From an uncultured Acidobacteriota bacterium (GTDB taxonomy: Bacteria > Acidobacteriota > Terriglobia > Acidiferrales > UBA7541): a stretch of DNA of 64,000 bases. A program made the translations under genes and the position numbers. The notes beneath the pieces were generated by a model. The model did no database searches. It was not told the origin of the DNA and saw nothing but the letters and a program-made list of their open reading frames with translations. Shown in pieces: positions 9,607 to 63,665 of the stretch (positions are counted from its first letter, which is position 1; the number at the start of each line of letters is the position of its first letter). Location of the stretch: the NCBI GenBank assembly GCA_963737205.1, contig CAVTRV010000009.1, forward strand, positions 3,044 to 67,043, in the 5' to 3' direction.

Positions 9607-12600
9607 TTTCCATCGTTCTGGTGATTGTTGGCGCCATCACCATCCTGAGTTTGCCCGTCGCGCAGTTTCCCAACATCGCTCCGCCCGAGATTCAAGATCA
9701 TTGCCACCTACATCGGGGCGGACGCGCAAACCCTCGAGCAATCGGTCGCCACTCCCATCGAGCAGCAGATGAACGGCGTGGACAACATGAACTACATGTA
9801 TTCGCTGAACGCCACCGGCAACTCGACCACCAGCTTGATCGTGGACTTCGACCCAAAAACCGATCCGAACACGGATTACATCCTGGCGCAAAGCCGGGAG
9901 ACGCTCGCTGCTTCCCAACTTCCCGTGGACGTCACGAATTACGGAGTCACCGTTCGAAAGTCAGTGACTGCCCCGCTCATGTTAATCGCGGTGTACTCGC
10001 CGCATGGAACCTACGACGCCAAGTTTTTGGCCAACTATGCGTACATCAATCTTGCGGATCCCATCCTGCGTTCGCCGGGAATCGGCAACGTTCAGGTATT
10101 CGGCTCCGGCCAATACGCGATGCGATTGTGGGTAAAGCCCGACCAGCTGGCAAAGCTGGGCATCACCGTTCCGGAAATCGTCAGCGCCATTCAAGCGCAG
10201 AACACCGTCAACCCAGCCGGGAAGGCGGGAGGCGAACCGGCACCCAAGGGCACAGGAATTTACCTATTCGGTTCTCGCGCAAGGCCGCCTGACGTCCCCG
10301 GAAGAGTTCGGACAGATCGTCGTCCGCGAAACGCCGGACGGCGGAATCGTGCGCGTCCGCGATGTGGCCCGAATCGAGCTGGGTTCCCAGGACTACAGCG
10401 TGGCGGGACGTTTTAATGGCAAAGCCGAGCGCCGTCATCGCCACCTACCAATTGCCCGGCTCGAACGCAGTGGATGCGGCCGCAGGCGTCAAGAAGCTGA
10501 TGGCGCAGATGAAGCAGCGCTTCCCCGAAGACCTGGATTTCGACGTCGCTCTGGATACGACGCGCGCGGTCACGGAAGGAATAAAGGAAATCGTCGAAAC
10601 GCTCTTGATCGCCCTCGCGCTTGTGATCCTTGTGGTGTACATCTTCTTGCAGGGCTGGCGCGCCACGCTGATTCCGCTTCTTGCCGTGCCGGTCTCGCTT
10701 GTGGGCACGTTCATACTGTTTCCCGATATTCGGTTTTTCCATCAACACGCTTTCTCTCTTTGGTCTGGTGCTGGCGATCGGGCTTGTGGTGGACGACGCC
10801 ATCGTCGTCGTCGAAGGCGTGGAACGGCATATCGAGGAAGGAATGACGCCGAAGGACGCGGCGTTGAAAGCGATGGAAGAGCTTTCCGGCCCCGTTGTCG
10901 GCATCGCGCTGGTTCTCTCCGCCGTGTTTGTGCCGACGGCCTTCATTCCCGGAATCACCGGCAAGCTCTACCAGCAATTCGCCGTCACCATCGCGATTTC
11001 CGTTCTGCTTTCCGCGTTCAATGCGCTCACGCTCAGCCCGGCGCTCGCGGCGCTTCTGCTGCGGCCGAAGGAACCGAGCCGGGGACTCCTGAGGAGATTT
11101 TTTGATTGGTTTAACCGCGTATTTGAGCGAGCCACAGAGGGCTATGTGCGCTGGAGCGCGGTATTGGTCCGAAAGACCGTCGTCGTGCTCGTGTTGCTTT
11201 TGGTCTTTTGTGTGGCGGGTGGCTTTTTTGCCAGCCGAATTCCGTCGAGCTTTCCTCCCGGACGAAGATCAAGGCTACGCCTACGTCAATGTGCAGCTGC
11301 CGAATGGGGCTTCTCTGGAACGCACCACGGCTGTCACAGCGGATGTGGAAAAAATCCTGATGGATACGCCGGGGGTCGAACACGTTACCATGCTTCGTCG
11401 GCTTCAGTTTGCTCAGTTTTGTCCGCACCAGTTACAACTCCACTTTTTTTGTGACCCTGAAGCCGTGGGATGAACGAACGACAAGGGCCCAGCAATTTCA
11501 ATCGCTCAAGGCGCATTTGAACCAGCAGTTGAGCAAGTTGCCCGCAGCAGTTGCCTTCGGTTTTTCCCCGCCCGCCATTCCAGGTGTCGGCACTGCGGGT
11601 GGATTTACGTTAATCCTCGAGGACCGTTCGGGTAGCGATCTTCAGTTCCTCGCCAAAAATTTGGGCATTTTTCTTGAAGCCGCCCGAAAGCGGCCGGAAA
11701 TCGCCAGCCTCAGCACCACTTTTTTGGCGAGCGTCCCGCAAGAGTTTGTCCACGTGGATCGCGACAAAGTGCTGAAACAAGGTGTGGCCCTCAACGATGT
11801 GTACAGGACGATCCAGGCCTTCATGGGCGGATATTTCATCAACTATTTCAATCGCTTTGGCCGCCAGTGGCAGGTCTATATCGAAGCGGAAGGCGAAGAC
11901 CGCGCCAAAGCGGAAAACGTCGGACAGTTCTACGTCCGGAACAACAAGGGAGAGAGTGTCCCTCTCTCCACACTTACCACTGTAGAGTCGCGCCTCGGCC
12001 CGGAATTCACCTTGCGCTTCAACGAATACCGTTCGGCGCAAATCAACGGCAGCGCTGCGCCGGGCTACAGCGCGGACCAGGCCACCGCGGCCCTCGAAGA
12101 TGTTTTCAAACAGACGATGCCGCGCGAAATGGGCTTCGATTACTCGGGCATATCCTTTCAGGAGCAGAAAGCGCGAGAGGGCGTGCCTCCGGCGGTGATC
12201 TTCGGACTTTCGCTGCTATTCGTATTCCTGATTCTGGCGGCACTGTACGAAAGCTGGACGCTTCCGTTCAGCGTGCTGCTGAGCACGCCCGTGGCGATTT
12301 TCGGAGCGTTCGGAATTCTTTTGCTGCGCCGTGTCCTGCTCGGCGTATTTCTATCCGCCCTACCTGGTCCAGATCGAGACCGATATCTACTCGCAAATCG
12401 GACTGGTCATGCTCATCGGTTTGGCTGCCAAGAACGCGATTTTGATCGTCGAGTTCGCCAAGGATGAATACGACAATGGAAAGCCTCTCGCGGATGCCGC
12501 GCTCGAAGGAGCCAGGCTTCGTCTGCGGCCGATTTTGATGACGTCTTTCGCGTTCATTCTCGGCTGCGTGCCGCTGTGGATCGCCACGGGCGCCGGAGTC

Positions 12601-44896: not shown

Positions 44897-44998
44897 ACTA
44901 GCGGAATAGCGCTTGGTGTTTCAAACGTGTTCGCACGCGATGTCATGCTGCGCGGCGGGATTCGATTCAGACGTGATAGAATGACTGCGAAAACATAA

Positions 44999-45080
44999 AG
45001 GCGATGGAGTTCGCCTGAACCGTCCGTCACCGGACTGATGACTCCTGGCCGCCGCTCGGCGCCAGGAGTTTTTTGTTTTT
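44999..45080 (+). promoter_or_regulatory. fluoride riboswitch (crcB RNA motif) with terminator expression platform
   Basis: AGGCGAUGGAGUUCGCCUGAACCGUCCGUCACCGGACUGAUGACUCC matches the crcB-motif aptamer: GGCGAUG..., CGCC, AAAC, CUGAUG, and pseudoknot GGAGU/ACUCC. The 3' strand overlaps the hairpin CTCCTGGC...GCCAGGAG (45042..45068), which is followed by TTTTTTGTTTTT. Confidence 0.9.
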
Positions 45081-45111
45081 GGCGCGGGCGGCGAGCGGAA
45101 ACGGAGAGACT

Positions 45112-45483
45112 GTGCGGATTGCGTTGCTGATTGTGTTTGGCATGGCGGGGACGCTGGCGCGTTACGGGCTGCAGGGCGTGGTGCAGGAGCGCACGGGCGC
45201 GACGTTTCCGTACGGAACACTTGTGGTGAACCTCCTGGGATGTTTTCTGCTGGGCGGAATCGCGCAGTATGGGCTCGCGCATTTGACGATTCCACCGGAA
45301 TGGCGCATCGGAATTACCGTCGGATTCTTCGGGGCGTTCACCACTTTTTCGACGTTCAGTTGGGAGACGGTTCGGTTGATGGAAGATGGGGAGTGGATGC
45401 GGGCGACGGCGTATGTGCTGGCGAGCGTCGCAGGCGGATTGGCGTGCATATTTTTCGGGATGCGGATCGCGGACCGGATTTGA
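45112..45483 (+). CDS. crcB: fluoride ion channel CrcB/FluC
   Basis: GTG at 45112 after GGAGAG. GTLARYGLQ...PYGTLVVNLLGCFLLG...GFFGAFTTFSTFS are CrcB signatures. Confidence 0.9.
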   Translation: MRIALLIVFGMAGTLARYGLQGVVQERTGATFPYGTLVVNLLGCFLLGGIAQYGLAHLTIPPEWRIGITVGFFGAFTTFSTFSWETVRLMEDGEWMRATAYVLASVAGGLACIFFGMRIADRI

Positions 45484-45727: not shown

Positions 45728-46084
45728 ATGGAGACGGGCGGCAAGCACGAGCGATTCGAGGGCGAGCGCACGCTGATGCGCATCCACATCGGCGAGTCAG
45801 ACCGGTGGCACGGCAAACCGCTGTATGAGGCGATTATCGAGGTGCTGCGGCGCGACAGTTTCAGCGGCGTGACGGTGCTGCGCGGCATGGGAGGCTACGG
45901 GTCGTCGAGCATCTACCATACCGAAAAGATTCTGCGGCTTTCGCAGGATTTGCCGATCGTGATCGAGGTGGTGGAGTTCGCCGAACGCATCGAGGCGATT
46001 CTGCCGCGGCTCGACGAAATGATCGGCGGCGGCCTGGTGACGCTCGAAAAGGTTCGCGTAATCCTGTACCGGCCCAACAAGTAG
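45728..46084 (+). CDS. DUF190 (PII-like) protein, commonly linked to crcB
   Basis: MRIHIGESDRWHGKPLYEAIIEVLRRDSFSGVTVLRGMGGYG. Confidence 0.8.
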   Translation: METGGKHERFEGERTLMRIHIGESDRWHGKPLYEAIIEVLRRDSFSGVTVLRGMGGYGSSSIYHTEKILRLSQDLPIVIEVVEFAERIEAILPRLDEMIGGGLVTLEKVRVILYRPNK

Positions 46085-55451: not shown

Positions 55452-58400
55452 CTAGCGCTTGAGGGCGCCGTGGACTTCGATGGCGAGCACGCTCTGGACT
55501 TGCTTCCAGAAGGCTTCGATCTCGAAGGGCTTGCGCACGACGGGGCAGCCGGATTGCCCGAGTGCTTCGCTAAGCTCGGGATCAGGGGCGTTCCAAACCG
55601 TGAAGATGATCCGGCGTGCCAGCTCGGGGCGATTTCGCTCGATCCAGGCGCAGAGGTCCGCGACGGAAACTTCGCCGGGCGTTCGAATGTCGATGACGGT
55701 GGCGTCGATGGTGTCGCGCTTCAATATGTTGATTGCTTCGCCAGGGCTTTTGGCCATTTTTACCGAGATGCCCCGCGCGACCAGGATTTCCTGCTCGAGC
55801 TGAAGGACGGCGTCATCGTCGTCCACCAGGAGGATTTTCCCCGACGCAGCGGCGCGCCGGGAACGCGGCGACTTTTCCGGTTTCTGCTCGGACGCAAACG
55901 GGGCCAGCGGAAGCGTGATGGAAAACACCGCGCCTCCCTGTTCCGCGTTGCGAACCTGAATTTCTCCGCCGTGTTCCTTGACGATGCCGTAGCAGATGCT
56001 CAAGCCGAGTCCGGTTCCCTTGCCGACGGCCTTGGTGGTGTAAAACGGGTCGAAGACGCGATGAGGATTTTGAACTCCGGGGCCATTGTCGGCGAATTCG
56101 ATCACCAGCTTGTCGCCGATGACCAGCGTGCGCAGCCAGATTTCGCCCTTGCCGTGCTTTTCGGCCACGGCGTCCACGGCGTTGTTCAGAATGTTGAGGA
56201 AGACCTGTTGGAGCTGATTGCCGTCGCCGCCGATCGAAGGCAGGTTCGGATCGAGTTCGCGATGAATCTGGATACTGTGGAGCTTCATATCGTATTCGCG
56301 AAGGGAAAGCGTGTCTTCCAGAATCTGGTTGATCTGAATGGGCGCGCGCTCCGGCTTGTGCTGGCGCGCGAAGCTGAGCAGATTTTGAACGATGTGATGC
56401 GTGCGCTGAGCCTGCTTGTAAAGCTTCTCGAGATAGTCGGAGCTTCGGGCGTTCGCGGATTCCTCGGATTTCAGGAGCTGGCTGTAACCGAGAATGGCCG
56501 TGAGCGGATTGTTGAGTTCGTGGGCGACGCCTGAGATGAGTTGGCCGACGGCGGCCATTTTTTCGCTTTGCAGCAACTGCTCCTGCGTGTGGCGGAGCGT
56601 ATCGTAGGCTTCGCGCGTTTCTTCCAGGAGGCGCGATTTGTCGATCGTCGTGGCAATCTGATTTCCCACGGCTGCCAGCAGGTTCAGCTCGGCGGCGGAG
56701 AATTCGCGCATTTCGCGGCACGCGATCACCAGCGTGCCGATGATGCGGTCCTTGGCCCACAGGACCACAATCTGCGACGCCAGGACGCCTTCTTTTCTCT
56801 GCAACTCGCGAAACTCCTCCGGCAGCGCCAACGCGGCGCCAGATAGCAGCGTGGCCCGGGCTTGTCGAACCTGCTGCAGAAGAGAAGCGGAAATCTGGAC
56901 GGGAGCCAAGCGGCGCGCGTATTCGGAGCGGTGTCCGAAATTCGCGGCGAGCTTCAAGGTTCGCGAGGCCTCGTCGAGGAAATACACGGTGACGCTATCC
57001 GCGGCAAAAAGCTCCGCGATCTTGGCCAGCGCGCGCGTGAGGACGTCCTCAAGCGTAGATGACTGGCTCAGGAGTTCCGCAATGACGTTGAGCGCGAGCA
57101 ATTCGCGATTGCGCCGGCGGATTTCGAATTCTGCCTGCTTGCGTTCGGTCACATCGAGCACGAAGCCCTGGTAGGCGACGATCGCGGCGGAGTCGTCGCG
57201 CGTGACGAAGCTGGATTCGTGCGCGGTGCGGATTTCTCCGTCGCGCCGGCGGAAGCGAAACTCGAAGTCGGTGACTTCGCCGTATTCGTGCAGAAGCCGC
57301 TTCAGGCGCTGACGGTCGGCCGAATCGATGTAAATCTCGCCGGGGATATCGATCTTGAGCAATTCCTCGCGATTTTCGTAGCCGAGCATGCGCATGAACG
57401 CATCGTTGAAATCGACGAACTTCCCGTCGGGCGTCGACATGAAGATGCCTTCCTGAACCTTCTCGAACAGGGCGCGGAACTTGCTTTCGGCCTCGCGGCG
57501 TTCGGTGAAATCTTTCAGAACGTGGACGGTGCCGAGACAATTTCCTTCGGAATCGTGGAAATTCGAGTTCGTAACCAAGAAGTGCCCGCCGAAGCTGGGA
57601 TCCACCTGCTCCGGCTTGCCGGCGGCTCCCTCGCAGTAGGGGCAGGCGCTCCAGCGAATTTCGCCATGCTTCAGCAACTCGCGCAGCAGGTGGCCCTGGA
57701 CCAGATCGGGCTCGAGGCCAAGATGCCAGGCGAGCGAGCGGTTCGCGCGGAGAATGCGGCCATTCGGAGAATGAACGAGAATCAGGTCGTCGATCGAATT
57801 GAAGGTATCCAGCCATTGGCGGCGAGCCGTTGCCGCAGATTCGATCAGCGCGACATTCTGCACCGTCAACCCGAGCAGGTTGCCGACGTTTGTGAGGAAG
57901 TCGATTTCGTCGCGCTCAAAGGTCCGCGCCGCCGAAGAAGCGATGCAAAGAAGTCCCAGGGGCTTTTCCTTGCCGGGGATGCGCACCACAACCGCGGCGG
58001 ATAATCTCTCTTTGTCGAGCCAGGCGGGTGGCTTGGCTTCCGAAGAGCGCTCGTAGGAAACGAATGGCGCGTTCCCTTCGAGGGCGTCTCGAGCCCATGG
58101 TTCCGTTTTCGCAATTCGCGCATATTGCCTCGCGGCTCGCTCGTCGAAGCCCACGGATGCGCGGAGCACCAGCAAGGCCAGGTCGCCATCGCTGTCGAGA
58201 AGGAAGACGAGGCCATGGCTCGCGTTCAAACTAGCCACGAGATTGCGCAGAACGCCATCGAGAGTCTGATGGACGCGCAGCGACTGCGTGGCCTCGGCCG
58301 TGATCATCGCCAGACTGCGCAATTTCTCGTTCAGGTCCTCCATTCGAGCGCGGCCGGACTCCAGGACCAGGACCGCCATGGAAATTCCCATCGTGATACC

Positions 58401-58964
58401 GAACAGGTCCTCCAGTGAAATGCGGAAGAGGGCCAGAGCCTGAAAGCTCCAGTCCGGGCTGTCGAGGCCGTGAAGACCGTAGAGAAGAAGCGAGCCGGCG
58501 AGAAGCTTCCACCCAACTCCGCGATGCCGGAGTTGGGAACGCCAGAGGATCAGGCCTGCCACGATGAACAGCACGGATTCGAGGATCGACTCCGCCCAAA
58601 TCGCCATTTCGGAGGATCTCTTGTCGAGCAGGAACACGGTGATGACAGCGATCAGCGCAAACGGCCACAGATACTTCAATCTTCGGCCGAGGCCGCTGCA
58701 CTCCAGGATCGCGGTGAAGAAGACGGCGGCTGTGACCAGGGATACCCCGGAACGGAACAGTTGAACGTCCGGCCCTCCATTCCACAAATGGGAAATCCGC
58801 AGGGCCGCGGCGAAGACGTACAGAGTCCAGCCGGCCAGCCAGTAGCGGAAGAAACGCGCCGGAAACCCCGGAGCCAGAAGGACATAGAGGACGAGCAGGA
58901 TGAACGCGGCAGAGCACTCAATGAATGCCGCCGCCAGAAAACCCGGGTTGGAAACAAAAGCCAT
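55452..58964 (-). CDS. multidomain hybrid sensor histidine kinase (TM region-GAF-PAS-PAS-GAF-HisKA-HATPase-REC)
   Basis: Six to seven N-terminal TM segments. H-box ISGVAHELNNPLTAILGY. ATPase FADNGPGV...GKGTGLGLSICYGIV. C-terminal REC KILLVDDDDAVL...VIDIRTPGE. Confidence 0.85.
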   Translation of the reverse strand: MAFVSNPGFLAAAFIECSAAFILLVLYVLLAPGFPARFFRYWLAGWTLYVFAAALRISHLWNGGPDVQLFRSGVSLVTAAVFFTAILECSGLGRRLKYLWPFALIAVITVFLLDKRSSEMAIWAESILESVLFIVAGLILWRSQLRHRGVGWKLLAGSLLLYGLHGLDSPDWSFQALALFRISLEDLFGITMGISMAVLVLESGRARMEDLNEKLRSLAMITAEATQSLRVHQTLDGVLRNLVASLNASHGLVFLLDSDGDLALLVLRASVGFDERAARQYARIAKTEPWARDALEGNAPFVSYERSSEAKPPAWLDKERLSAAVVVRIPGKEKPLGLLCIASSAARTFERDEIDFLTNVGNLLGLTVQNVALIESAATARRQWLDTFNSIDDLILVHSPNGRILRANRSLAWHLGLEPDLVQGHLLRELLKHGEIRWSACPYCEGAAGKPEQVDPSFGGHFLVTNSNFHDSEGNCLGTVHVLKDFTERREAESKFRALFEKVQEGIFMSTPDGKFVDFNDAFMRMLGYENREELLKIDIPGEIYIDSADRQRLKRLLHEYGEVTDFEFRFRRRDGEIRTAHESSFVTRDDSAAIVAYQGFVLDVTERKQAEFEIRRRNRELLALNVIAELLSQSSTLEDVLTRALAKIAELFAADSVTVYFLDEASRTLKLAANFGHRSEYARRLAPVQISASLLQQVRQARATLLSGAALALPEEFRELQRKEGVLASQIVVLWAKDRIIGTLVIACREMREFSAAELNLLAAVGNQIATTIDKSRLLEETREAYDTLRHTQEQLLQSEKMAAVGQLISGVAHELNNPLTAILGYSQLLKSEESANARSSDYLEKLYKQAQRTHHIVQNLLSFARQHKPERAPIQINQILEDTLSLREYDMKLHSIQIHRELDPNLPSIGGDGNQLQQVFLNILNNAVDAVAEKHGKGEIWLRTLVIGDKLVIEFADNGPGVQNPHRVFDPFYTTKAVGKGTGLGLSICYGIVKEHGGEIQVRNAEQGGAVFSITLPLAPFASEQKPEKSPRSRRAAASGKILLVDDDDAVLQLEQEILVARGISVKMAKSPGEAINILKRDTIDATVIDIRTPGEVSVADLCAWIERNRPELARRIIFTVWNAPDPELSEALGQSGCPVVRKPFEIEAFWKQVQSVLAIEVHGALKR

Positions 58965-59100: not shown

Positions 59101-60198
59101 TTGGGGACGGAGCGACCTTTGGACAAAGAGAAGATACTGGTTGTAGACGACGAAGAAGCGATTCGAGAGGTAGTCTCAACGCTTCTCGAGGCGCAGGGTT
59201 ATCAGACCTGTGTGTGCTCAAACGGTCGTATCGGTCTCGAGAGTTTCTGCAACGACACGTTCGATCTGGTCCTGAGCGACATCGTCATGCCGGAAATGGA
59301 CGGCCTGAAGCTGCTCGGGGAACTGCGCATTCAGGATCCCGACGTCCCTGTGATCATGGTCACAGCCATGCATGACATTTCGATCGCTCTGGAGGCGATC
59401 CGCTCCGGCGCCTACGACTATATCCTGAAGCCTTTCGAGAAGGACCAGCTGCACTTGAGCGTCCGGCGCGCCCTGGAGCATCGCCGGCTTGTGCTCGAGA
59501 ACCGCACGTATCAAAGCGACCTCGAACATCTGGTGGCGGAACGCACGCAACAGCTCTCGATTGCCCTCCAGGACCTCGAGCAATCCTACGACTACACACT
59601 CGAAGCGCTGGGCGGCGCGCTCGACGCGAAAGACGCGGAGACGGAAGGCCACTGCCAGCGCGTGACGGCGTTCACGATTACGATTGCGCGCGCGATGGGA
59701 GTCGACAAAGGCTTGCTGCGCCACATTGCTCGCGGCGCTTTTCTCCACGATATTGGCAAGATGGGAGTCCCGGACAGCATACTCACCAAGCCGGGACCGC
59801 TGACGCCCGACGAGCGCGAGATCATGCGGAAGCACTGCCAAATCGGTTTCTCCGTGCTCGAGCGGATTCCGTTTCTCAAGGAAGCAGCCGAAATCGTGCT
59901 GTCGCACCAGGAATGCTACGACGGGTCGGGCTATCCGCGCGGCCTGAAGGGCGAACAAATTCCGCTGGGTGCCAGAATTTTCGCGGTCGCAGACACGCTC
60001 GATGCCATGATTTCCGACCGTCCGTACCGCAAAGCGCTTCCCATCTCGGCCGCGCGCGAGGAAATTCAGCGTTACTCCGGGCGGCAGTTCGATCCGCGCG
60101 TGGTGCAAGTCTTCATGTCGCAGCCAGACCGCGTGTGGCTGGATCTGCACGAGAGAATCGGCGATCCCTTCCGCCTCGCTCAACTCGAACACGTTTAG
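59101..60198 (+). CDS. response regulator with HD-GYP output domain (c-di-GMP phosphodiesterase type)
   Basis: KILVVDDEEAIRE...DLVLSDIVMPEMDG (REC). HCQRV...FLHDIGKMGVPDSIL...HQECYDGSGYPRGL (HD-GYP). Confidence 0.85.
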   Translation: MGTERPLDKEKILVVDDEEAIREVVSTLLEAQGYQTCVCSNGRIGLESFCNDTFDLVLSDIVMPEMDGLKLLGELRIQDPDVPVIMVTAMHDISIALEAIRSGAYDYILKPFEKDQLHLSVRRALEHRRLVLENRTYQSDLEHLVAERTQQLSIALQDLEQSYDYTLEALGGALDAKDAETEGHCQRVTAFTITIARAMGVDKGLLRHIARGAFLHDIGKMGVPDSILTKPGPLTPDEREIMRKHCQIGFSVLERIPFLKEAAEIVLSHQECYDGSGYPRGLKGEQIPLGARIFAVADTLDAMISDRPYRKALPISAAREEIQRYSGRQFDPRVVQVFMSQPDRVWLDLHERIGDPFRLAQLEHV

Positions 60199-60294
60199 CC
60201 CGGCCTGAAAGCATCCAACCGGCAAGCAGCGGAAAGCGTGCAGTCTTGCCTGGCTCGCGGAACGCAGGTAGTATGCCCACTCGGAGGGCGACGA

Positions 60295-60549
60295 ATGGCT
60301 CTGGTGCCGATCAAGACAGCGTCAACGACGGGCTACTGCGATTGCATTTGCGGCTGCTACGAATTGGCGAGCCAGCGCGACGAAGATACCGGAAAAGGCT
60401 ACTGCCCGCGATGCGCGAAAGAGCATCTGGAATTGAATCGCGGCATCGGCTTGCCGCAGTTGCCGCCGTCGAGGCTCCCCGACAGCGAAGGTCCTGCGCT
60501 TGACCTTCACACTCCCGAACCCGCCGATCCCCCCGGCCGCTTGCGCTGA
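60295..60549 (+). CDS. small Cys-rich hypothetical protein
   Basis: ATG 60295 after GGAGGG. TGYCDCICGCYE...GYCPRCAKEH has six Cys. Pro-rich tail. Confidence 0.4.
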   Translation: MALVPIKTASTTGYCDCICGCYELASQRDEDTGKGYCPRCAKEHLELNRGIGLPQLPPSRLPDSEGPALDLHTPEPADPPGRLR

Positions 60550-60654
60550 CGTATCGTCCCTTCACGCCGGAGCCCCGGAACCTTTCCGCATAGTTTTCCG
60601 CTGGACGGGCGCTTATAATCGCGTTGGGCTTTACTAACCCAAAACGGAGGAAGC

Positions 60655-61230
60655 ATGAAGCGCAGCGTCATGGCATTGACTGGCTTGCTTCTGCTGCTGC
60701 TCGCGGGATGGTTCCCCGCTGCGGCGCAGGACGACGCCATGGCCACGACAACCTTGAAGGTGGGCGATGTCGCGCCGGATTTCAGTTTGCCGAGCGATCA
60801 ACCAAAGCCGGTGAAGCTGAGCGACTATCGTGGAAAGAAGACTGTAATCCTCGCCTTCTACGTCCTGGCTTTCACAGGTGGTTGAACGAAGGAACTACAG
60901 GCCTATCAGGCTGATCTGGCCAAACTCGAAGCAAACGACACCGAAGTTCTCGGAATCAGCATCGACAGTCCCCCCGCCAACGCAGCATTCGCGAAACAAA
61001 TCGGCGTCACGTTCCCGCTCCTAAGCGACATGAATCACAAGGTCCTCACTGCTTACGGGATTCTGAAAAAGTATCCCATGGGCGGAGATGAGTACGAGTG
61101 GGCACGGCGCACGACGTTCGTGGTGGACAAAGACGGAAAGATTCAGCACATCGAATTCGACAACAGCGCCGTGAATCCCAACAACGCCCTCGACGTCTGC
61201 CTGAAGCTCCACGACAAAGCAACACCATAG
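60655..61230 (+). CDS. signal-peptide peroxiredoxin (AhpC/TSA, AhpE-like) with in-frame TGA at the peroxidatic Cys position; candidate selenoprotein
   Basis: ORFs 60655..60885 and 61030..61230 share one frame, and the only stop between them is TGA 60883-60885. Read-through gives ...VILAFYVLAFTGG[U]TKELQAYQADL...VLGISIDSPPANAAFAKQIGVTFPLLSD.... RBS GGAGG, TATAAT at 60614-60619, and its own terminator. Confidence 0.65.
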
Positions 61231-61257
61231 CCAGCAATCCGCGCGTAGCAGATCACC

Positions 61258-61290
61258 GGGGCGGGATCACTCCCGCCCCTTTTTCTTGCT
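61258..61290 (+). terminator. intrinsic terminator of the peroxiredoxin gene
   Basis: GGGGCGGGA-TCAC-TCCCGCCCC followed by TTTTTCTTGCTT. Confidence 0.85.
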
Positions 61291-61430
61291 TGGTTGGGTT
61301 TCACGCCTACGCAACCCAGGCTTCCGTTGAAATGCACGGCCGCGTGGACGTTTCTCGCCGGACGATGGTAAGCTTCCGGCCTCAATCTTGGCACGCGAGG
61401 CGAGCGCGTTATCTCGAAGAGTGAGATTCC

Positions 61431-62561
61431 GTGCGCCCTCCAGGACGACATTCGATGAACCCCGATCCGAAGAGCGTTCGCAATGCCCCCGAGGGCTTGC
61501 GGACGCTTGCGCAGCCGGTGTCCGCACTGATCACTCGCGCCGCAATATTCCTGGTGGTCACTCTGAAACCGGGGTCAGAAAGTCGCGCGGCGGTTCGGTC
61601 GTTGTGCGGGGACCTCGCGGCGCTGTTGCGCTCGGTGGGATTTCGCGATCTCGAAGGAGCCCTTTCCTGCATCATGGGATTTGGCTCTGACGCGTGGGAC
61701 CGCCTCTTTGGGCCGCCCCGGCCGGCGGAGCTTCATCCGTTCCGCGAGTTTCGTGCCGGAACGCGCCACGCGGTGTCCACACCGGGCGACTTGCTATTTC
61801 ACATCCGCGCCAAGCGCATGGATTTGTGCTTCGAGCTTGAGACGCAAATCATGGAGCGCATCGAAGATGCCGTCACGCCGGTGGATGAAGTGCACGGCTT
61901 CCGTTTCTTTGACGACCGCGACCTCATCGGTTTCGTCGACGGGACGGAGAATCCGACGGGCGAAGCAGCGGTAGACGCCGTGCTGATCGGCGAGGAGGAC
62001 GCCGCGTTCACCGGCGGCAGCTATGTGATCGTGCAGAAGTATCTCCACGACATGGAAGGTTGGAACGCGCTCCCCACCGAAGCTCAGGAACGAATCATCG
62101 GCCGCAAGAAGCTCTCCGACATCGAACTCGATGATTCCGTCAAGCCAACCTCGGCGCACAACGCGCTCACGACGATCGTCGAGAATGGGAAAGAGGTGAA
62201 AATCCTGCGCGACAACATGCCCTTCGGCCGGCCCGCGCACGGTGAATTTGGCACCTATTTCATCGGCTACAGCCGTTCGCCCCGCACCACCGAGCAGATG
62301 ATCGAAAACATGTTCGTGGGGCGTCCGCCCGGCAATTACGACCGGCTGCTCGACTTCAGTCGCGCCGTCACGGGAACCCTGTTCTTCGTGCCGTCCGCCA
62401 CGTTTCTGGACGGCGTGGCCGATGACGAGCCACCATCCGAGGCGACGTCGGTCACGACGCCGGCTGCCGCACCTCCCGCCGAGCTTTCGTCATCCAACCA
62501 GTCGCAGAGCGACGGCTCGCTAGGTATCGGTTCCCTCAAAGGAGACACCTCACATGAATAA
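61431..62561 (+). CDS. DyP-type peroxidase with C-terminal encapsulin targeting peptide
   Basis: FGSDAWDRLFG...LLFHIRAKRMDLCFE...GFVDGTENP... (DyP). Long Pro/Ser/Ala linker ending in SDGSLGIGSLKG (cargo-loading motif). Start may be ATG 61455. Confidence 0.85.
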   Translation: MRPPGRHSMNPDPKSVRNAPEGLRTLAQPVSALITRAAIFLVVTLKPGSESRAAVRSLCGDLAALLRSVGFRDLEGALSCIMGFGSDAWDRLFGPPRPAELHPFREFRAGTRHAVSTPGDLLFHIRAKRMDLCFELETQIMERIEDAVTPVDEVHGFRFFDDRDLIGFVDGTENPTGEAAVDAVLIGEEDAAFTGGSYVIVQKYLHDMEGWNALPTEAQERIIGRKKLSDIELDDSVKPTSAHNALTTIVENGKEVKILRDNMPFGRPAHGEFGTYFIGYSRSPRTTEQMIENMFVGRPPGNYDRLLDFSRAVTGTLFFVPSATFLDGVADDEPPSEATSVTTPAAAPPAELSSSNQSQSDGSLGIGSLKGDTSHE

Positions 62562-63372
62562 TCTACATCGCGAGCTGGCCCCCATTTCCGATGCGGCGTG
62601 GGCTCAAATTGAAGAGGAAACTTCGCGCACCTTCAAACGATACCTGGCCGGGCGGCGCGTCGTCGACGTGCACCCGCCGGTGGGCACGAGTCTTTCCGCC
62701 GTCGGCACCGGCCACCTGAAGACGATCGCGGCTCCCCGGGACGGCATCCTCGCCCGGCAGCGCGAGGTGAATGCGCTGGTGGAGCTGCGTTTTCCGTTCG
62801 AGCTCGATCGCCATGACATCGACGACGTCGAACGCGGCGCGAACGACTCGAACTGGCAGCCGGCGAAGGACGCTGCGCGCCAAATCGCGTTTGCCGAAGA
62901 CGGCGCCATCTTCGAGGGCTACGCCGCAGCAGGCATCGGCGGCGTCCGCCAGGGAACCAGCAATCCGAAGGTGACGCTTCCTGCCGATGTGCGCGAGTAT
63001 CCGCAAGCCATTGCCCAGGGCTTGAGTCAGTTGCGCCTGGTAGGCGTCAACGGCCCCTACTCGGTGCTGCTCGGCGCCGACGCCTACACCGCGCTCGCCG
63101 AAACCAGCGACCACGGATACCCGGTGCTCGAGCACGTCAAGCGGCTGAGCATCGATAAAATCATCTGGGCGCCCGCCATCGCCGGGGCCTTCGTGATCAC
63201 CACTCGCGGCGGCGATTTCGATCTTCATATCGGCCAGGACGTCTCCATCGGCTATCTCAGCCACACCGATAAAACCGTCCGGCTGTATTTGCAGGAGACG
63301 TTTACGTTCCTGTATCTCACCGCCGAGGCTGCAGTCGCATTTGCCCCTTATGGGAAAGCGCAGAAGAAGTGA
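62554..63372 (+). CDS. family 1 encapsulin (linocin M18-like) shell protein
   Basis: MNNLHRELAPISDAAWAQIEEE...RRVVDV...ELRFPFELDRHDIDDVERGANDSNWQPAKDAARQIAFAEDGAIF. 8-nt overlap with the DyP stop. Confidence 0.9.
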   Translation: MNNLHRELAPISDAAWAQIEEETSRTFKRYLAGRRVVDVHPPVGTSLSAVGTGHLKTIAAPRDGILARQREVNALVELRFPFELDRHDIDDVERGANDSNWQPAKDAARQIAFAEDGAIFEGYAAAGIGGVRQGTSNPKVTLPADVREYPQAIAQGLSQLRLVGVNGPYSVLLGADAYTALAETSDHGYPVLEHVKRLSIDKIIWAPAIAGAFVITTRGGDFDLHIGQDVSIGYLSHTDKTVRLYLQETFTFLYLTAEAAVAFAPYGKAQKK

Positions 63373-63416: not shown

Positions 63417-63665
63417 CTAGCGGGAAGTGTTGCGGCGGTTGAAGATCAGTACGAAGATGCCGACGAAGAGGCTCAACGTAGGAAACAGAAGAATCAGGAT
63501 GCCGTGGCGCAAAGCTTCGCGGCCCTGCGGCCCGGATGCGGCGGCGTTCTGGTAGCACATCGCGCAACCCTGCGCGGCCGCGTGCGGCGCGCAAACCGCG
63601 AATAGTGCGAGGCAGGCAGCCAACATCGCCGCCGCTCGAAACACGAAGTTAAACCTCGCTTTCAA
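63417..63665 (-). CDS. small membrane protein with CxxC motif
   Basis: Signal-like MLAACLALFAVCAPHAAA, then QGCAMCYQN and a C-terminal TM segment. Lies directly downstream of the oxidase subunit IV-like gene. Confidence 0.45.
   Translation of the reverse strand: MKARFNFVFRAAAMLAACLALFAVCAPHAAAQGCAMCYQNAAASGPQGREALRHGILILLFPTLSLFVGIFVLIFNRRNTSR

Follow-up and report, generated by a model that had tools for sequence, protein, structure and literature searches.

A predicted exported selenocysteine peroxiredoxin with its own compact SECIS hairpin in Acidobacteriota

Introduction

Peroxiredoxins (Prx) that carry selenocysteine (Sec) are an established family with a TxxU motif and the PF00578 domain (PMC13188914, PMC1794560). 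One member, PrxU of Eubacterium acidaminophilum, has been verified experimentally (PMC13188914), and Zhang et al. (2006) reported 12 bacterial Sec peroxiredoxins, dominated by Deltaproteobacteria and Clostridia. Export of a peroxiredoxin is known from a Cys enzyme, PprX of Caulobacter crescentus, which is an envelope protein of the PrxQ type with a signal sequence and belongs to a ScsB > TlpA > PprX pathway (PMC3322552). Reported here is a gene in a 64,000-nucleotide (nt) stretch of the Acidobacteriota contig CAVTRV010000009.1. This whole stretch is called the window, and its coordinates are used throughout. Positions 60655-61230 very probably encode an exported peroxiredoxin with Sec as the peroxidatic residue, the in-frame UGA codon being recoded by way of a selenocysteine insertion sequence (SECIS) hairpin. 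The codon is conserved without exception in two clades of relatives, its counterpart in more distant homologues is Cys, and the hairpin that follows it displays covariation between clades.

A conserved UGA codon within one reading frame

Two open reading frame (ORF) fragments, 60655..60885 and 61030..61230, share one frame on translation. The sole internal stop in the 191 sense codons is the TGA at 60883-60885, codon 77. A first-pass annotation of this DNA had described one frame split by a single TGA, which is borne out by the translation of 60655-61233.

A scan of the GTDB species-representative genomes with the post-UGA part of the protein gave 351 related stretches. The best 80 of these, each from a different species, are the orthologues counted below. 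Nearly all come from metagenome-assembled genomes of Acidobacteriota (Acidiferrales, Acidoferrum, Sulfotelmatobacter, Terriglobia), and the closest, L001, is 97.2% identical to the window across the gene. A full match was seen only for a 955-bp Logan contig (SRR30413551); ENA contigs that encode an identical 76-aa fragment belong to close relatives. Codon 77 is TGA in 80/80, within the conserved sequence FYVLAFTGG(TGA)TKELQAYQ. A second clade, consisting of 80 contigs from Joint Genome Institute (JGI) metagenomes, shows the motif VYVLAFTGG-U-TKQLQAVQ with 59-64% identity, and it too has TGA at the same codon in all 80. No extra stops or frameshifts are found in these 160 related genes.

The ratio of nonsynonymous to synonymous substitution rates (dN/dS, Nei-Gojobori method) is 0.098 upstream of the UGA (codons 34-76) and 0.095 downstream (codons 91-185). 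These values are near-equal, therefore both halves are translated and equally constrained. Across codons 78-90 dS is halved.

In a protein search, the homologue states at this site were counted among the top-120 cluster representatives. There are 67 with 'W' and 31 with Cys, and about 14 are fragments of 107-111 residues at the UGA site, mostly beginning at LQAYQ directly after it. The 'W' of P0001 is a TGA at the DNA level, the JGI call on a short contig having used genetic code 4; we regard the remaining 66 W calls as having arisen in the same way. Public gene calls err in four ways (P0001-P0120; L083 450-452): W, G (from one source), C-terminal fragments of 107-111 amino acids (aa), and a spliced-out site, as in P0011 and P0079 where the UGA region is removed. 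In P0053 and P0037, the two Cys homologues read at the DNA level, the codon is TGC. The alignment of homologues, proposed by the first-pass annotation as a check for Cys or TGA at this codon, therefore gives TGA in 160/160 and Cys in the 31 clusters. Most branches of a rough neighbour-joining tree contain Sec forms, among which four or more Cys clades are nested; this nesting hints at repeated Sec/Cys exchange.

Peroxiredoxin fold and active site

Cys was placed at codon 77 for profile and structure-sequence comparisons of the read-through product. The Pfam AhpC-TSA profile (PF00578) then matches residues 36-166 over its full length (profile positions 1-124 of 124, E-value = 6e-37, 126.7 bits vs a cutoff of 26), and the match runs across both sides of the TGA. 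A profile search against PDB sequences yields BCP/PrxQ and AhpE proteins (E-value = 3e-40), with sequence hits at E-values of 7e-28 to 1e-22. For the Cys homologue P0023, AlphaFold2 (AF2) gives a model with a predicted local distance difference test score of 88.6. In this model the active residue is situated at the start of helix alpha2 and the counterpart of window Cys182 lies in the last helix. The nearest structures found by Foldseek are Sulfolobus Bcp1/Bcp4 and AhpE, with target-normalised template modelling scores of 0.83-0.89. Read through, the gene gives a whole peroxiredoxin whose structural type is BCP/PrxQ-AhpE, in agreement with the complete AhpC/TSA-fold protein that had been described at the outset.

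Codon 77 aligns with the peroxidatic Cys of the S. tokodaii peroxiredoxin 2ywn (AFTQVCTKE) and of M. tuberculosis AhpE (AFTGICQGEL), and T74-G-G-U77 aligns with the TxxC of both. These alignments confirm the placing of the TGA at the catalytic Cys position. The motif quoted for it, F-x-P-L-A-F-T-G-x-C, is right in the Cys column and wrong in the Pro column: the gene reads FYVLAFTGG-U and has Val70 where the peroxiredoxin motif PxxxTxxC has Pro. In the residue-conservation set (window gene plus the 80 orthologues, n=81), V70 is present in 91% of sequences, the remainder having Ile, and T74 in 100%. Arg152 and Cys182 are invariant in the 81 sequences and also in a separate 72-sequence family alignment that includes Sec and Cys forms. 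Because of this invariance across Sec and Cys members, Cys182 would be the obvious candidate to resolve a selenenic acid.

Signal peptide and expression signals

The N-terminal sequence in the window is MKR-SVMALTGLLLLLLAGWF-PAAA followed by Q, and consists of a basic n-region, a hydrophobic core and an AxA cleavage motif. By a simple hydropathy and charge test, the same architecture is kept in 78/80 orthologues. There is no twin-arginine motif in the N-terminus. The conserved architecture suggests export to the periplasm by the Sec pathway. The tryptic peptide across the Sec77 site is TVILAFYVLAFTGG-U-TK.

The GGAGG ribosome-binding site, the signal-peptide-like N-terminus and the terminator listed by the first-pass annotation are all located in the sequence, and GGAG-type motifs are found at the same place in orthologues. 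The TATAAT box is present as a hexamer, and as a promoter it lacks a partner: a consensus promoter scan of 60200-61500 showed no -35/-10 pair.

The SECIS hairpin

The segment past the UGA folds into a GGCC/GGCC stem with an inner AUCA/UGAU stem, which begins 15 nt past the codon and has a free energy of -9.0 to -9.1 kcal/mol. A hairpin between GGCC 60900-60903 and GGCC 60918-60921, at the distance of a bacterial SECIS, had been pointed out before and is found there. Columns are numbered here from the U of UGA, such that 18-21 pair with 36-39 and 23-26 pair with 30-33.

Within the clade of the window (n=72 distinct orthologous sequences), pairing holds in 99% of cells and 0/500 shuffles reach the observed values. 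Three pairs covary, by GC>AU, CG>UA and CG>GC double changes, with no one-sided changes. The second clade displays the hairpin at the same columns with a different stem sequence. In the joint two-clade alignment (120 distinct sequences), 94% of cells are paired vs 14-39% in slid controls, and again 0/500 shuffles attain this. At 21:36, 61 sequences have CG and 47 have GC, and at 24:32, 64 have UA and 55 have CG; the two pairs switch together across the clades. The apical CAG[G/U]CUG is invariant. Relative synonymous entropy is ~0-0.19 at codons 82-87 and 89 vs about 0.7 elsewhere, and Tyr84 is TAT in 77/77 sequences while the other Tyr codons favour TAC. The stem had been called weak. It is indeed small, but evolutionarily it is not weak, given the covariation and the synonymous constraint.

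The bacterial SECIS (bSECIS) model has a loop of 3-9 nt, an upper stem of 4-16 bp, the pattern N1-G-[G/U]-N-N2, a distance of 16-37 nt from the UGA and a minimum free energy (MFE) no higher than -7.5 kcal/mol (PMC13188914). These features were compared one by one with the hairpin. The hairpin shows A26-G27-G/U28-C29-U30, with a loop of 3-5 nt depending on A26-U30 pairing, an upper stem of 4 bp above a lower stem of the same length, a spacing of 22-23 nt and an MFE of -9.0 kcal/mol, all within the model. Rfam at its gathering thresholds gave nothing near the gene, and with permissive settings the only hit in 60850-60980 was a chance fragment of a small nucleolar RNA.

Part of clade 2 has an alternative hairpin (columns 14-20/27-33, loop GGUCCA) as its MFE fold. 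The pairing of this hairpin over the joint alignment is only 74.6% and its covariation is no better than that of shuffles, and it was discarded as a general SECIS. It may stand in for the SECIS in a clade 2 sub-clade with a broken outer stem, described below.

Two Cys forms differ downstream of their TGC. P0037 (L173, L174) has TTCAGGCTGG 48 nt past its TGC, near the SECIS apex CAGGCUG of Sec forms, and this may be a fossil SECIS from a recent Sec-to-Cys conversion. In P0053 the apex motif is lost and the sequence reads CAGGCGGG.

Proposed mechanism

SelB with Sec-tRNA(Sec) would be recruited by the small hairpin at 60900-60921 and would recode the UGA at 60883-60885 during translation. The signal peptide would send the pre-protein to the periplasm. 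There Sec77, activated by Thr74 and Arg152, would reduce peroxides and be converted to a selenenic acid, which Cys182 probably resolves as a selenenylsulfide, and a periplasmic thiol reductant would recycle the enzyme. This scheme presumes selenium incorporation and the SelA/B/D/C machinery in the organism, and peroxidase activity despite Val in place of Pro; these are predicted here.

Other readings of the UGA codon

Stop-codon read-through boosted by downstream structure exists in principle, and the UGA could be read without Sec, as Trp, Gly or Cys, through a reassigned code or a near-cognate or suppressor tRNA, with the hairpin only stimulating the event. A reassigned code is excluded, since TGA is an ordinary stop of long ORFs in the window: it ends 10/22 of them, including the full-length encapsulin, and is the commonest stop there. 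The W calls of JGI pipelines (code 4) and the G of one source agree with Trp or Gly at the site, yet either residue would abolish peroxiredoxin chemistry in proteins that keep Thr74, Arg152 and Cys182 without variation. Exact alternation of U and C at a redox-active site is the signature of Sec, and the hairpin, down to its G[G/U] loop and its spacing, agrees with the SelB-type SECIS model. Sec machinery is on record for the phylum and is presumed for the carrier genome, a point in favour of read-through without Sec, which we nevertheless consider quite improbable.

It is still harder to maintain that the locus makes two products, namely an exported peptide of 76 residues from the N-terminal part and a C-terminal fragment with an initiation of its own. 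The databases do hold many 'proteins' of 110-111 aa that begin at LQAYQ just past the UGA. Codon 81, where the shortened gene calls begin, is CTA in the window and CTC, TTG, CTA or others in orthologues, and has the highest synonymous entropy of the gene; therefore no conserved internal start is present there. Neither fragment alone forms a complete thioredoxin fold, the active-site helix begins at the UGA position in the model, and the Pfam and PDB alignments are continuous across the UGA.

A pseudogene created by a nonsense mutation, or apparent through a fault of sequencing or assembly, would look identical in one sequence with an internal stop, and gene callers do split or shorten the gene, but this reading is effectively refuted by the same TGA in 160/160 independently assembled relatives of two clades, which are free of further stops and frameshifts, by a dN/dS of about 0.10 on either side and by selection on the downstream RNA structure.

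The first-pass annotation had preferred a Sec-decoded UGA to a nonsense mutation. That preference is sustained by the unbroken conservation of TGA, the equal dN/dS, Cys in the same column, the covariation and consensus fit of the SECIS and the conserved signal peptide.

Points against Sec insertion, and the Sec machinery

Several observations weigh against Sec as the residue at codon 77, or against a working selenoperoxidase. Neither the window nor about 1.5 Mb of flanking DNA from the orthologous loci yielded selA, selB, selD or tRNA-Sec: queries with the E. coli proteins SelA, SelB and SelD had no tblastn hits in the window and the 80 loci, and the tRNAs reported by ARAGORN were limited to tRNA-Leu, -Lys and -Asp, all of them in 60 flanks and none in the window. 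This absence is uninformative rather than negative, because the genes need not be linked to the peroxiredoxin gene and whole genomes are not covered. No second selenoprotein gene appears in the neighbourhood by an all-against-all comparison of TGA-bridged ORFs over 1.6 Mb. The comparison recovered the peroxiredoxin in 81/81, and otherwise the true stop that ends cytochrome oxidase subunit III and off-frame noise. The 8-bp hairpin is indistinguishable from shuffles when folded alone (z 0.13), and being unexceptional on a single sequence, it draws its significance from the comparative data only. In clade 2 there is a sub-clade with a broken outer stem, 24 sequences being unpaired at 19:38. Val replaces a Pro that is universally conserved in peroxiredoxins, so that full peroxidase competence may not be guaranteed. 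Finally, Sec insertion is itself a prediction from sequence.

For the phylum, SelA, SelB and a Sec-containing FdhA are recorded in Solibacter usitatus (PMC1794560 supplements). A search with the Solibacter SelA showed many acidobacterial SelA sequences, all matches being at least 72% identical; the few named ones are from Solibacter, Bryobacteraceae and Acidobacteriia. Two long SelA-bearing ENA contigs (P0200, P0122) are not among the genomes with the peroxiredoxin gene. The Sec trait exists at the phylum level in Acidobacteriota.

Genomic neighbourhood

In the window, the peroxiredoxin gene is followed by genes for a DyP peroxidase and an encapsulin (Table 1). The C-terminus of the DyP, ...SDGSLGIGSLKGDTSHE, resembles an encapsulin cargo-loading peptide. 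The first-pass annotation had joined these genes to the peroxiredoxin as a peroxide-handling locus. The association is not a conserved one: DyP-encapsulin stands beside the peroxiredoxin gene in 4/80 orthologous loci, which are the window's 4 closest relatives, and it was rejected as a conserved functional partner. The pair is a recent lineage-specific insertion between the peroxiredoxin gene and a cytochrome oxidase operon.

That operon encodes an aa3-type cytochrome c oxidase and is found downstream in 53-56/80 loci, tail-to-tail with the peroxiredoxin gene. The gene order is COX2-COX1-COX3-COX3-COX4_pro, then a small membrane protein with CxxC. This protein of 82-84 aa (63417-63665 on the minus strand of the window; 10457-10711, also minus, in L018) displays a signal peptide, GCAMCY (the CxxC) and a C-terminal transmembrane segment, with no Pfam match. 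Its gene is the last of the oxidase operon and lies tail-to-tail with the Sec peroxiredoxin gene in 56/80 loci. Possible roles are assembly of the oxidase or redox partnership in the periplasm.

On the upstream side, an HD-GYP response regulator (59101-60198, plus strand) is syntenic in 65/80 loci. A 1170-aa hybrid histidine kinase with GAF, PAS, HisKA, HATPase and receiver domains (55452-58964, minus strand) is divergent from it. Between the regulator and the peroxiredoxin gene there is, in 46/80 loci, a small Cys-rich ORF (60238-60549, plus strand, in the window), which reads GYCDCICGCYE...GYCPRCAKEH and has no Pfam match. The Cys homologues occupy unrelated neighbourhoods.

The same acidobacterial gene order is seen in two loci labelled otherwise, L006 (DATJWH010000008.1, 'Candidatus Limnocylindrales', Chloroflexota) and L030 (DATLSB010000023.1, 'Candidatus Dormiibacterota'). 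Compared with the response regulator of the window, theirs show 93% and 83% identity, respectively, and both loci are probably mis-binned or mislabelled.

Elsewhere in the window, a fluoride riboswitch is found at 44991-45054 on the plus strand (Rfam RF01734, 50.8 bits). Directly downstream are a 136-aa ORF (45073-45483, plus strand), judged by eye to be CrcB/FluC-like, and then a 118-aa ORF (45728-46084, plus strand), judged likewise to be DUF190-like. Riboswitch and ORFs form an ordinary fluoride-resistance unit, with the protein identities as judged by eye.

Table 1. Features of the predicted selenoprotein locus and of the adjacent genes (window coordinates)
Feature	Position	Strand	Basis or remarks
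Peroxiredoxin gene, predicted selenoprotein	60655..61230	+	191 codons including Sec77; stop TAG 61228-61230
UGA, predicted selenocysteine codon U77	60883..60885	+	Peroxidatic position; alignment to solved Prx structures and TGA conservation
Active-site segment V70-L-A-F-T74	60862..60876	+	Aligned to 2ywn and AhpE; V70 on the Pro column, T74 on the catalytic Thr
Arg152, catalytic Arg of peroxiredoxins	61108..61110	+	Aligns to the AhpE Arg in ANRGTFVVD
Cys182 (TGC), C-terminal	61198..61200	+	Candidate resolving residue; putative role
SECIS hairpin	60900..60921	+	Outer stem 60900-60903/60918-60921; upper stem 60905-60908/60912-60915; apical loop 60909-60911 (G-G/U-C)
Shine-Dalgarno GGAGG	60646..60650	+	4 nt before ATG
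TATAAT hexamer, possible -10	60614..60619	+	Sequence reading; tentative
Intrinsic terminator	61258..61289	+	9-bp GC-rich stem (61258-61279), then T-run
Predicted Sec-type signal peptide	60655..60726	+	MKRSVMALTGLLLLLLAGWFPAAA, predicted cleavage before QDD
DyP peroxidase	61431..62561	+	Pfam Dyp_perox_N/C; context only
Encapsulin	62554..63372	+	Pfam Linocin_M18; start overlapped by DyP gene; context only

Implications

In this widespread gene of soil bacteria annotation goes wrong as a rule, NCBI-type callers giving fragments of 110-111 aa. Treating it as a selenoprotein puts hundreds of records right and is a reason to build a family model specific to it. The gene extends selenoprotein use in Acidobacteriota beyond formate dehydrogenase and suggests that abundant soil organisms handle peroxide in the periplasm with the help of selenium. 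The natural Sec/Cys series, together with an active site that lacks Pro, offers material for asking what Sec buys a peroxiredoxin.

A larger proposal is put forward tentatively, its parts taken jointly, and we rate it somewhat short of an even chance. These genes might constitute the first recognised family of selenoperoxiredoxins exported by the Sec pathway, a BCP/AhpE-like branch with Val for Pro, a resolving Cys and a SECIS type of its own, ancestral and near-universal in a large soil and peat order of Acidobacteriota and unnoticed because pipelines shorten it or translate it with code 4. If true, soil and peat Acidobacteriota would have a selenium-dependent periplasmic peroxide defence beside an aa3 oxidase operon.

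Comparison with known systems

As in the published Sec peroxiredoxins, Sec replaces the peroxidatic Cys in TxxU and the SECIS follows inside the coding sequence. The closest published protein is Prx_2 of Anaeromyxobacter dehalogenans, with 41% identity over 146 residues and U in the same column. It is likewise without the active-site Pro (Thr, in FYTKAFTPGU) and shares the C-terminal Cys. Identity to the 11 published sequences compared is 30-45%, and the window protein differs from these in having a signal peptide and in coming from Acidobacteriota. Membership in the PrxU family (NCBIfam NF040737) was rejected with a score of 61.9 vs a cutoff of 270, and that in Prx-SUH (NF045827) with 38.3 vs 298. 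The lack of a match to either model explains the shortened 'redoxin domain-containing protein' (P0100) given by the Prokaryotic Genome Annotation Pipeline (PGAP).

The best matches in both sequence and structure are AhpE (Rv2238c) and archaeal BCP/PrxQ proteins (2ywn/4g2e, S. solfataricus Bcp1/Bcp4), which share the ..LAFTxxC.. active-site helix and the catalytic Arg. However, these enzymes are cytoplasmic, use Cys and keep the canonical Pro, and AhpE is of the 1-Cys type, whereas the window family has a signal peptide, Sec at the Cys position, Val at the Pro position and the invariant Cys182. PprX, likened here by description, is a functional precedent for a periplasmic peroxide reductase with a membrane electron relay, but it uses Cys and keeps Pro, Thr, Cys and Arg. 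No ScsB/DsbD/TlpA-like gene was seen adjoining the window peroxiredoxin gene.

The SECIS of E. coli fdhF is also a stem-loop just past the UGA inside the ORF. Its apex is CAGGUCUG vs CAGGCUG/CAGUCUG here, and both loops have G and then G/U. The window stem is shorter and weaker (-9 vs -16 kcal/mol over 60 nt) and has no equivalent of the bulged U, and the loop G is at +27 in the window gene vs +23, counted from the U of UGA.

Nothing established is overturned by these comparisons, as Sec peroxiredoxins, SECIS elements in coding regions and an envelope peroxiredoxin are all known already. The gene is regarded as a widely distributed, mis-annotated addition to the established Sec peroxiredoxins, distinguished by its predicted export, by Val in place of the active-site Pro, by a C-terminal Cys that never varies and by a SECIS that is compact and specific to the family.

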